A program made the position numbers and the translations under genes. A model generated the notes under the pieces. It ran no database searches. It was not told the DNA's origin and saw only the letters and a list, made by a program, of their open reading frames with translations. 36,558 nt of DNA from Nautiliaceae bacterium (GTDB taxonomy: Bacteria; Campylobacterota; Campylobacteria; Campylobacterales; Nautiliaceae). Positions within the stretch are counted from its first letter, which is position 1. Every line of letters begins with the position of its first letter. Location: the NCBI GenBank assembly GCA_039831155.1, contig JBDONT010000039.1:1-36558 (forward strand), read 5' to 3'. This document shows, piece by piece, positions 12,602-13,962 of the stretch.

Positions 12602-12949
12602 ATGCTTGCACCAAAAAGAACAGATGTTGATATGAATAGTGAGGAGTTTAAATTAGAAGAAGAAAAAACAAAAAAATTCGTAGAAAAAGTAGTAAATCAA
12701 TTTAATTGGTGTTTAAATCCAGATAAAGAAGTTTATGATGCAATTGTAATGGGGCTTACAAGAAATAAATTAATGTATGGAAAAAGATATTGTCCTTGTT
12801 TTATTCCAATGGGAGATAAAGATGATAGAATCTGTCCTTGTAAACCGGCAATTGACCATGAAGTAGCAGAAGGTTGTTGTCATTGCGGAATTTTCTGTAA
12901 TCCTAATAAATGTGAAGAAATTAAAAAGGATTTAAATGAAAACAGTTGA
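12602..12949 (+). CDS. Ferredoxin:thioredoxin reductase catalytic-subunit family protein
   Basis: CPC...CPC...CHC motifs (RYCPCF, ICPCKP, CCHCGIFC); GL.RNK..YG. Confidence 0.9.
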   Translation: MLAPKRTDVDMNSEEFKLEEEKTKKFVEKVVNQFNWCLNPDKEVYDAIVMGLTRNKLMYGKRYCPCFIPMGDKDDRICPCKPAIDHEVAEGCCHCGIFCNPNKCEEIKKDLNENS

Positions 12950-13667
12950 TATTAATTCACCTGAATTTCAAGAAGAGTTTGTAAAAACGGAAAAATTTGC
13001 TCATAAGGTTGTTAAGCAGTTCGGCTGGGCTTTTAATCCAGATGAAGATGTAGTGGATAGAGTTTTAAAAGGACTTACAAATAACAAACTTTTATACGGG
13101 AAGAGATTTTGTCCCTGTTTTCCTGTTGAAGAGAAAGACGGTAAATACGTAAGCAGCGATAACAGAATCTGCCCTTGTCCTCAAGCTATAAATGATGAAA
13201 TTCCAAATGAGGGAGTTTGTCATTGTGGGATTTTCTGTACCGAGGAGTTTGCTAAAAACGCTTCTAATGAAAAAAAAGAGTCTCATACTGTCGAAATAGA
13301 CGGGCTTAGTGTGGGTGAGCTTGAAGAACTTCTTAAAAAAGAGCAGATTTTAGGAAACGAACTTGAAATTTTACTTAAAGCAAGAGAAGCTTCTCTTGTA
13401 GATTTTGAACTTATAGATATCCGTGAGCCTTTTGAACATCAGATGATGAGAATAAAAGGTACAGATAAACTGCTGCCTATTAGCAGAGTTCAGTATGATT
13501 TGGATGAATGGATGAAGCTTAAGGATAAAAGAATAATAATCTATTGTCACGTAGGAAGTAGAAGTGGTTATCTTCAAAGAGCTCTTCAGCAGCAGTTAGG
13601 ATTTGACAAAGTCGGAAATTTAACCTACGGAATTGCCGATTATTTCGGAGAAATAGAAAGAGGGTAA
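12936..13667 (+). CDS. FTR catalytic domain fused to a rhodanese domain
   Basis: RFCPCF, ICPCPQ, VCHCGIFC, then LIDIREPFE, YCHVGSRS and GF..V.NL..GI. Confidence 0.9.
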   Translation: MKTVDINSPEFQEEFVKTEKFAHKVVKQFGWAFNPDEDVVDRVLKGLTNNKLLYGKRFCPCFPVEEKDGKYVSSDNRICPCPQAINDEIPNEGVCHCGIFCTEEFAKNASNEKKESHTVEIDGLSVGELEELLKKEQILGNELEILLKAREASLVDFELIDIREPFEHQMMRIKGTDKLLPISRVQYDLDEWMKLKDKRIIIYCHVGSRSGYLQRALQQQLGFDKVGNLTYGIADYFGEIERG

Positions 13668-13668
13668 G

Positions 13669-13962
13669 ATGTTTGTGCTTGGAATTCCTGTTAAAGATAA
13701 CGTATGTGTAGGGAGTAAAGAGGCTGAAAAATTTGCAAAAGTGTTTGTTGAAAACGGAGCTGTAGAAAAAATAGAATATGTTGATAATAGAGACAATTTA
13801 ATAGGAGTTGTGCATTTTTTTATAACTCCGAAAGAAGAGTATGTTTTTGATTTTTTAGAAGCCGGGGCGGAGCCTCTTATGATTCCGGCACCTCAAATGA
13901 GTATAAATGATATAGTTGAAGCGTTTTTATTTAGAGAGCTTTTCTCTTACGGTACTATTTAA
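13669..13962 (+). CDS. Hypothetical protein, weak NifX/NifB-like fold
   Basis: IPV...A..FA.V.VENG.V..IE.V.N pattern recalls NifX-family proteins; directly follows FTR-rhodanese. Confidence 0.5.
   Translation: MFVLGIPVKDNVCVGSKEAEKFAKVFVENGAVEKIEYVDNRDNLIGVVHFFITPKEEYVFDFLEAGAEPLMIPAPQMSINDIVEAFLFRELFSYGTI

Follow-up and report, generated by a model that had tools for sequence, protein, structure and literature searches.

The window analysed here is the 36,558-nucleotide forward-strand sequence of contig JBDONT010000039.1 (positions 1 to 36,558) from the Nautiliaceae bacterium assembly GCA_039831155.1, and it carries two overlapping genes whose products both contain the catalytic domain of ferredoxin:thioredoxin reductase (FTR), hereafter FTRc. 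The first gene encodes a stand-alone FTRc protein, FTRs, and in the product of the second the same domain is followed by a rhodanese. This FTRc-rhodanese fusion characterises the free-living Campylobacterota associated with sulfide in general, many of them sulfur oxidisers, and is not specific to sulfur reducers. We propose, at a confidence a little short of an even chance, that it could act as a ferredoxin-dependent iron-sulfur persulfide reductase, by analogy a counterpart of the enzymes Npsr, CoADR-RHD and CoAPR, with a cytoplasmic housekeeping role. The features on which this proposal is built are the following:

12602-12949, + strand: FTRs, stand-alone FTR catalytic-domain paralogue of 115 amino acids (open reading frame; PF02943, 83.9 bits)
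12936-13667, + strand: FTRc-rhodanese fusion of 243 amino acids (open reading frame; PF02943 and PF00581)
13371-13643, + strand: rhodanese domain of the fusion, residues 146-236 (PF00581, 45.6 bits)
13545-13565, + strand: codons of the rhodanese active-site loop of the fusion, C204-H-V-G-S-R-S210 (translation)

The two genes share a 14-nt overlap, and an AAGGAG- or AAGGA-type ribosome-binding site precedes both start codons. The FTRs translation holds VDMNSEEF...KTKKFVEKVVNQFNWCLNPD and that of the fusion VDINSPEF...KTEKFAHKVVKQFGWAFNPD, and both proteins exceed the cut-off of PF02943 (FeThRed_B), set at 22 bits, by a wide distance, the fusion with 100.2 bits. Their FTRc domains are 56% identical over around 100 residues (E ~4e-30), and a genome-wide profile search located PF02943 genes at these two places only in the 1.53-Mb genome. 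In FTRs the signature cysteines are C64/C66 and C78/C80, in two CPC motifs, and C93/C95 in CHC, with C59/C61, C79/C81 and C95/H96/C97 as the counterparts in the fusion, which also has C101. All six were invariant in the alignments of 29 fusions and 32 FTRc genes, as was the cysteine corresponding to FTRs C99 (in CHCGIFC), a phylum-wide feature. The His of CHC never varies among the 32 FTRc genes, and in the fusions a Tyr in one of the 29 is the sole exception. The original prediction, made from the letters of the window, had described two overlapping paralogs that both keep CPC/CPC/CHC, and open reading frames, translations and PF02943 scores agree with it.

The second half of the fusion is a rhodanese, with a PF00581 score that doubles the cut-off of 22.2 bits, and its predicted active-loop cysteine, within CHVGSRS, is also borne out. 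In this loop (residues 204-210) C204, H205, G207, S208, R209 and S210 were invariant in all 29 aligned homologues, which span 53-86% identity, and its six-residue length is one that we take to be of the sulfurtransferase type. The fusion carries PF02943 and PF00581 as its only Pfam domains and FTRs carries PF02943 alone, rubredoxin being absent in both. An AlphaFold2 model of the fusion, built with the 29-sequence alignment (mean pLDDT 89.1, pTM 0.52), consists of two confident domains and a low-confidence linker, in such a way that the FTRc domain occupies approximately residues 1-112, the linker residues 113-118 (pLDDT below 50) and a helical extension residues 126-151 or so, followed by the rhodanese core. 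This predicted arrangement, with a loose linker between two domains, fits a tethered, mobile carrier domain. In Foldseek searches, the FTRc half matched the plant FTRc 7c3f (chain 7c3f_P), and the rhodanese half matched the persulfide reductases 6pfz, 3icr and 8a56 and a persulfide dioxygenase-rhodanese fusion (5ve3), with TM (target) values up to 0.86 for solved rhodaneses and with Cdc25 catalytic domains among the weaker matches.

The association of both domains is also found in separate genes, as four genomes, G269, G289 and G291 (family f4) and G296 (family f1, the Nautiliaceae), hold adjacent unfused FTRc and rhodanese genes. In the first three a stand-alone-type FTRc is followed by the rhodanese gene, and the N-terminal helical extension conserved in fused forms is also present in the unfused partner rhodaneses of G269 and G291. 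In G296, which is 99% complete and in which no full-length fusion was found, an orthologue of FTRs (86% identical) overlaps a gene for a rhodanese paralogue of 127 amino acids with the loop CRSGNRT, and a gene of the CiaB family comes next (L066, G296:C1:842833-851496, positions 3932-4673), without the two small genes, p97 and p113, that in the window stand before CiaB. The pairing of FTRc and rhodanese thus recurs fused, split and with either paralogue, and these adjacent gene pairs support that the two domains may form a functional unit. The same extra rhodanese is encoded in a sister genome (L008, 2871-3206), where it lies between p113 and CiaB.

The distribution of the fusion was studied in a phylum sample of 401 Campylobacterota genomes, in which a best match at E ≤ 1e-58 in the match table was counted as a full-length fusion. 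Some match was detected in 160 genomes and a full-length fusion in about 102, all of these among the 125 genomes outside families f2 and f3. By family, the fusion was present in 7 of 8 genomes of f1 (including that of the window and one frameshifted copy, the eighth being G296 with its split form), 16 of 20 in f4, 1 of 3 in f5, 22 of 23 in f6, 34 of 34 in f7, 3 of 8 in f8, 2 of 2 in f9, 1 of 2 in f10, 13 of 19 in f11 and 3 of 4 in f12. By contrast, none of the 118 genomes of f2 and none of the 158 of f3 reached the threshold; they showed weak rhodanese-only matches, plus one FTRc-only genome in f2, and we take both to be large host-associated families of the Campylobacter/Helicobacter type. 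The frameshifted copy belongs to a complete genome of the same genus (G043; L009, 1344-2058), where the fusion is split into two frames of 66 and 175 amino acids around the first CPC motif, and is the result of a frameshift or of a sequencing error.

Among named records the best relatives of the fusion were Caminibacter, Lebetimonas and Nautiliaceae metagenome-assembled genomes, with 78-98% identity, and the fusion was also found in Sulfurimonas, Sulfuricurvum, Hydrogenimonas, Nitratifractor, Sulfurovum and Sulfurospirillum. All 80 loci kept in this search were from Campylobacterota. A library of 1.84 billion representatives at 50% identity gave 9 matches at E ≤ 1e-30, about five of them full length, and such a small number indicates that the fusion family is compact. 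The public sequencing runs closest to the window sequence were hydrothermal-vent samples, the runs X5-X14 being left out of habitat claims for their small word shares.

Whether FTRs corresponds to the stand-alone FTRc proteins of other families was addressed with a maximum-likelihood tree of 75 FTRc domains (117 columns), which left out truncated or frameshifted pieces, rhodanese-only open reading frames and nine near-identical loci of Nautiliaceae metagenome-assembled genomes (L033-L039, L041 and L043), and in which the deep forks are poorly resolved. The Nautiliaceae FTRs sequences form a clade of their own (100/96) on a long stem, placed outside a clade in which the fused and stand-alone FTRc domains of other families are mixed, and for this reason FTRs is, as judged from the tree, a diverged Nautiliaceae-specific paralogue and not the orthologue of those stand-alone proteins. 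FTRs has ten cysteines within its 115 residues, and C92 turns the last motif into CCHC. Three of them, C37, C92 and C103, are shared by all 16 Nautiliaceae sequences and by none of the 16 FTRc genes from elsewhere, and with C99 they could make up a second site for a metal or a disulfide. Stops were found inside the matches of some relatives to this upstream gene, in alignments that reach query residues 112-125, and we read them as a probable run-on past the stop of the gene. Both window proteins also match NCBIfam NF041072 (FtrB family double-selenoprotein), with 50.7 and 74.5 bits; a selenoprotein was rejected, as these scores are far below the equivalog cut-off of 160 and the window open reading frames have Cys codons and no in-frame TGA.

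In the mechanism that we propose, reduced ferredoxin would pass single electrons to a [4Fe-4S] cluster held by the CPC/CPC/CHC cysteines, after which the adjacent redox-active cysteine pair would be reduced from its disulfide form. The target of the resulting dithiol would be the tethered rhodanese, with C204 carrying sulfane sulfur as a persulfide or engaged in a mixed disulfide; its attack would free H2S or hand the sulfide on, and would reset the carrier. FTRs, by itself or jointly with the fusion, would most likely serve this rhodanese domain too, or else a related thiol. The expected role would be sulfane-sulfur homeostasis, or the supply of sulfide for biosynthesis in sulfidic habitats, and not energy-conserving sulfur respiration; the housekeeping contexts of the genes and their presence in oxidisers and reducers both point in this direction. 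The original prediction had suggested that the electrons may go to a tethered persulfide or polysulfide instead of thioredoxin. The coupling of FTRc and rhodanese which that idea needs is sustained by the conserved fusion, the invariant cysteines and the four split pairs, and persulfide reduction itself is a reasonable suggestion given the flavoprotein precedent; the tie to sulfur respiration found no support. As a candidate electron donor we consider a small 2x[4Fe-4S] ferredoxin, although its gene (7031-7366) is not adjacent and lies around 5 kb upstream of FTRs, between those of a response regulator and Ppx/GppA.

Several points weigh against the proposal of a persulfide reductase. The electron donor, the substrate, the product and the physiological role are all our own inference, and the literature searched holds no experiment on any member of the FTRc-rhodanese family. 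The two thioredoxins of the genome are possible substrates of FTRs and of the fusion, and the absence of TrxB from this particular assembly, although probably a gap, would allow them a role as thioredoxin reductase in this organism. In other families the neighbourhoods of the fusion and of the stand-alone FTRc genes are housekeeping or variable and give no functional clue. The geometry between the two domains lacks a confident prediction, as the pTM value of the model reflects, and the RNA libraries whose coverage of these genes is described below come from one sample, may contain carried-over DNA and also cover the divergent upstream gene.

A bolder version can be formulated, in which the FTRc-rhodanese proteins would constitute a new enzyme class of ferredoxin-dependent, iron-sulfur persulfide reductases, near-universal in free-living Campylobacterota and the low-potential equivalent of the flavoproteins Npsr and CoAPR, and the cysteine-rich FTRs of Nautiliaceae would in addition occupy the structural position of the variable subunit of plant FTR by pairing with the fusion into a two-cluster heterodimer suited to a cytoplasm very rich in sulfane sulfur, as in sulfur respirers. 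We consider this combination rather doubtful. A complex prediction with FTRs, the full-length fusion and two 4Fe-4S clusters scored 0.00 in two runs, which speaks neither for nor against the heterodimer.

The thioredoxin system of the genome bears directly on the alternatives. Thioredoxin-domain matches were located on contigs C43, C20 and C38, the contig of the window being C37, and comprise a TrxA-like protein of 108 amino acids and a zinc-finger Trx2-like protein, both with WCGPC. A search of the genome, which is 96.7% complete, for the variable subunit of FTR (FTRv, PF02941) gave no match with E ≤ 1, and the earlier statement that neither a thioredoxin nor an FTR variable subunit lies near the pair was correct. 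TrxB (TIGR01292) was not found in the assembly of the window, where the best score, 45 bits, stays far from the cut-off of 343 bits and the nearest flavoprotein (339 amino acids, C34:11557-12528) has no CxxC motif. At E ≤ 1e-30, it was detected in 400 of the 401 phylum genomes, including all seven other genomes of the family, so its absence here is probably a gap in an assembly of 43 contigs, and an FTR as the only thioredoxin reductase was dropped as a general explanation. The coexistence of the fusion with an NADPH thioredoxin reductase across the phylum argues for a separate job.

It is in this light that we judge the possibility that FTRs and the fusion are usual ferredoxin:thioredoxin/disulfide reductases serving TrxA/Trx2 or some other protein disulfide, with the rhodanese as an accessory, regulatory or docking module. 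The complete family signature, with the same His of CHC as in plant and cyanobacterial FTRc, agrees with such a function, as do the two WCGPC thioredoxins, the lack of TrxB in the assembly of the window and the many other families in which stand-alone FTRc occurs without an adjacent rhodanese. The nearly universal TrxB, the missing FTRv, the absence of any thioredoxin gene next to the FTRc genes whose neighbours were scanned and a rhodanese catalytic loop whose invariance is unexpected for a mere docking module all speak against it, and we hold it to be unlikely.

Gene contexts bear on a biosynthetic role. In other families the order argG-fusion-rplI-hslV-hslU was found in 17 of 23 loci, and the stand-alone FTRc genes have as neighbours nrdB, pcm, pckA, gatC, an ArsC-family gene, fur, an M20 peptidase gene (dapE-like), or genes of a copper ATPase or a saccharopine dehydrogenase. 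Such housekeeping contexts would suit a sulfur relay for thiolated tRNA, molybdopterin, thiamine or Fe-S clusters, in which the rhodanese persulfide would be the donor and the FTRc domain would supply two electrons for release or transfer, or re-reduce a transfer disulfide. In NCBIfam the rhodanese half does show matches, below cut-off, to the rhodanese at the C-terminus of MoeZ/MoeB-type enzymes, and the near-universal presence in free-living members, sulfur oxidisers and reducers alike, could also be expected from a relay of this kind. However, ThiI, MoaD, MnmA and IscS do not adjoin the fusion in the loci scanned, and the fusion was not found in f2 and f3, the inferred host-associated families that still make these cofactors, making a relay improbable in our view.

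The original prediction had linked the pair to sulfur reduction, as would suit a sulfur-reducing vent organism, and in its strongest form this would be a dissimilatory module in which ferredoxin electrons reach polysulfide or persulfide within energy-conserving sulfur respiration. The tandem of FTRs and fusion is indeed confined to Nautiliaceae plus one f10 genome, in which an FTRc gene lies directly upstream of the fusion, Nautiliaceae have been described as sulfur or polysulfide respirers (PMC2628731), and the nearest runs with the sequence are vent samples. This specificity belongs only to the tandem. The fusion itself is equally present in the sulfur-oxidising Sulfurimonas and Sulfuricurvum and in Sulfurovum and Sulfurospirillum, with housekeeping contexts elsewhere, and this speaks against the link. 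The genes scanned from 5.4 to 19.8 kb of the window included none for sulfur respiration, the fusion has no hydrogenase, membrane or quinone-linked genes at its side, and a soluble cytoplasmic reaction from ferredoxin to sulfide conserves by itself no energy. In its main text, the genome paper of Nautilia profundicola names PsrABC for respiration and a CoADR-like enzyme for the production of sulfide in the cytoplasm, and is silent on this gene, "thioredoxin" and "rhodanese" having 0 occurrences each (PMC2628731). A respiratory module is thus very unlikely.

Finally, that the rhodanese fold acts on a non-sulfur substrate, as a Cdc25/Acr2-type arsenate reductase or phosphatase or in selenium handling, with FTRc recycling it, can be practically dismissed, since the Cdc25 domains among the weaker Foldseek matches and the selenoprotein family that gives the FTRc half its best NCBIfam name, far below cut-off, are set against a C-X4-R loop instead of the C-X5-R that we take as the rule for Cdc25/Acr2, against the NF041072 scores and Cys codons already described, and against the lack of adjacent ars or sel genes.

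Downstream of the fusion three further genes complete a tightly packed, operon-like block (FTRs, fusion, p97, p113 and CiaB) which has this form only in Nautiliaceae, and a divergent gene precedes it:

13669-13962, + strand: p97, conserved protein of 97 amino acids with no assigned family (open reading frame; 17 Nautiliaceae homologues)
13972-14313, + strand: p113, protein of 113 amino acids with no assigned family (open reading frame)
14323-16083, + strand: CiaB-family protein (DUF7897) of 586 amino acids, last gene of the block (PF25448, E 6e-202; NF033805, 783 bits)
11850-12482, - strand: divergent protein of 210 amino acids, possible regulator (weak matches, below cut-off, to a sigma-54-activator ATPase and to a Fis-type HTH)

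After the overlap of the first two genes, the following gaps are 1, 9 and 9 nt, p97 starting 1 nt past the stop codon of the fusion, and a purine-rich ribosome-binding site lies a few bases 5' of the ATG in FTRs, the fusion and p97. A scan for promoters and terminators gave 20 promoter-like sites against 18.8 ± 4.4 in shuffled sequence, and with no excess no promoter is claimed. The same gene order, FTRs and fusion followed by p97, p113 and CiaB, was found in all the Nautiliaceae loci examined (L003-L009, L033 and L035-L046) where contigs reach far enough. Two divergent genes precede the block (11195-12482, - strand), encoding the 210-amino-acid protein, without a receiver domain, and a 220-amino-acid protein of no family; this pair accompanies the block in many Nautiliaceae, and in others glnB-amtB takes its place.

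The original prediction had mentioned a weakly NifX-like neighbour, and a protein of 97 amino acids, p97, is indeed encoded directly downstream of the fusion; the resemblance to NifX is very weak. None of 17 members of the p97 family matched PF02579 (Nitro_FeMo-Co) even at E ≤ 10, and a genome-wide search with this profile (E ≤ 1) pointed to four other places, three of them above the cut-off, p97 not being among them. When the p97 family was aligned by hhalign with the three PF02579 proteins of the genome, a probability of 38% was obtained (pairwise E 3.3e-4, 89 columns), and a lead from the Atlas consisted of one cluster with a low score, 0.81, in which 10% of the members carry the PF02579 family. 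A single-sequence AlphaFold2 model of p97 had a pLDDT of 50.3 and was too poor for use. Neither p97 nor p113 had a match in Pfam or NCBIfam. The conservation of p97 across its 17 Nautiliaceae homologues is high (84% mean column identity), and in a sample of 193 genomes from other families 27 had distant homologues of around 100 amino acids, in at least seven families and far from the fusion. In 3 of 5 such loci examined (L074-L078) an unannotated gene for around 160-170 amino acids follows the p97 homologue, and in another family one such following gene resembles p113 weakly (pairwise E 0.004). From these comparisons p97 and p113 look like a separate small conserved gene pair of no known family, present here by chance.

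The CiaB homologue ("Campylobacter invasion antigen B" family) is full-length in this free-living vent bacterium and carries an HEFGH motif of the HExxH type, which suggests for CiaB a metalloprotease-like housekeeping role and not one in host invasion. Right after it, at 16297-17593 of the window, the gene of a TdeIII-type restriction endonuclease overlaps that of an N4/N6 DNA methyltransferase, as a type II restriction-modification pair. In general, the surroundings between 5.4 and 19.8 kb are of housekeeping or mobile character, with plsY, folB, the response regulator, the 2x[4Fe-4S] ferredoxin, Ppx/GppA, a DAO-type flavoprotein, an ExoX-like exonuclease, the TdeIII-type enzyme and its methylase, a DUF308 protein and a chemoreceptor.

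Two metatranscriptome runs from one vent sample, X1 and X2, provided RNA contigs with zero differences to the window. Those of X1 cover 12602-12798, 12817-13624, 13663-13839 and 13810-15569, and those of X2 cover 12817-13617 and 13663-14635. The junctions FTRs/fusion, p97/p113 and p113/CiaB are bridged by these contigs, and that between the fusion and p97 is not, according to a 31-letter rule. A contig that spans two genes does not prove a single transcript, and the contigs are compatible with in situ transcription of the block. In a further run, X12, a joint that skips 12862-13215, with 22 letters on its short side and derived from a relative of 90-95% identity, was taken as a mapping artefact between the paralogous CPC regions or as the gene of the relative, and not as a real deletion.

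If the proposed mechanism is true, it would add a third route of cellular persulfide reduction to those of NAD(P)H flavoproteins and thioredoxin, it would give chemolithotrophs, anaerobic and microaerobic, a direct connection between their ferredoxin pool and the handling of sulfane sulfur, and thioredoxin reduction would no longer be the limit of what the [4Fe-4S]/disulfide catalytic unit of FTR is used for. Neither the fold nor the kind of chemistry would be new. Nearly all the Campylobacterota that prevail in sulfidic vents, seeps and aquifers have the fusion, and, being small, soluble and present in cultivable genera (such as Sulfurimonas and Sulfurospirillum), it makes the idea directly testable. 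The fusion is already annotated by domain names in RefSeq and IMG, and a literature search found no paper on it and nothing for PDB 7pwe; one survey of bacterial FTRc architectures (Balsera et al. 2013, Planta 237:619) may mention it. What is new here are the tandem paralogue of Nautiliaceae and the additional cysteines particular to it, the split forms, the co-occurrence with TrxB and the evidence against a link to sulfur respiration.

We compared the two proteins with known systems of each of their halves. The FTRc of cyanobacteria and chloroplasts (1dj7, 2pu9, 7bzk and 7c3f) belongs to the same PF02943 family, with the same CPC...CPC...CHC including the His, and presumably shares its chemistry, in which a [4Fe-4S] cluster beside a redox-active disulfide converts one-electron input from ferredoxin into two-electron disulfide reduction. 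The solved FTRc chains show little similarity in sequence (E 2e-6 to 5e-4). Whereas the canonical enzyme works with the variable subunit PF02941, this genome lacks it and the organism is non-photosynthetic; the window proteins also add the phylum-wide Cys of CHCGIFC and, in FTRs, three more, and one copy is fused to a rhodanese instead of serving free thioredoxin. The rhodanese half has the same fold as GlpE and PspE of E. coli (1gmx and 2jtq), with a short loop and one catalytic cysteine, and differs in being tethered to its presumed reductant and in the added N-terminal helical extension, which is conserved in fused forms and also seen in four sequences of unfused partners. Thioredoxin can discharge the persulfide of GlpE, and a dithiol attack of this kind is what we propose here for the FTRc cysteines.

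The nearest solved structure by sequence is the ferredoxin:disulfide reductase (FDR) of Methanosarcina acetivorans (4tpu; E 1.2e-7, residues 12-108), which has in common with the fusion an FTRc-like domain in a non-photosynthetic anaerobe, the lack of FTRv and a fused second small domain of redox type. In FDR this partner is a rubredoxin and the last motif is CYC, whereas here they are a C-terminal rhodanese and CHC. FTR and FDR have been grouped as [4Fe-4S] ferredoxin-dependent reductases (PMC7278568). In its overall plan, the fusion resembles more Npsr (from Shewanella loihica and Archaeoglobus fulgidus, 6pfz), CoADR-RHD (3icr) and CoAPR (8a56), in which a disulfide-reductase module is likewise joined by a single linker to a C-terminal rhodanese. 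In enzymes of the Npsr/CoADR-RHD type the rhodanese cysteine has been described as the first sulfur-accepting site, with persulfides and polysulfides preferred over disulfides (PMC7969121). Their reductase is an FAD/CoA flavoprotein that uses NAD(P)H, a domain absent from FTRs and the fusion, in such a way that only the rhodanese halves match, and its place is taken here by an iron-sulfur FTRc of around 110 residues, presumably fed by ferredoxin. The reductase halves are not homologous, and the likeness would therefore be one of mechanism, by analogy, and not of family membership.

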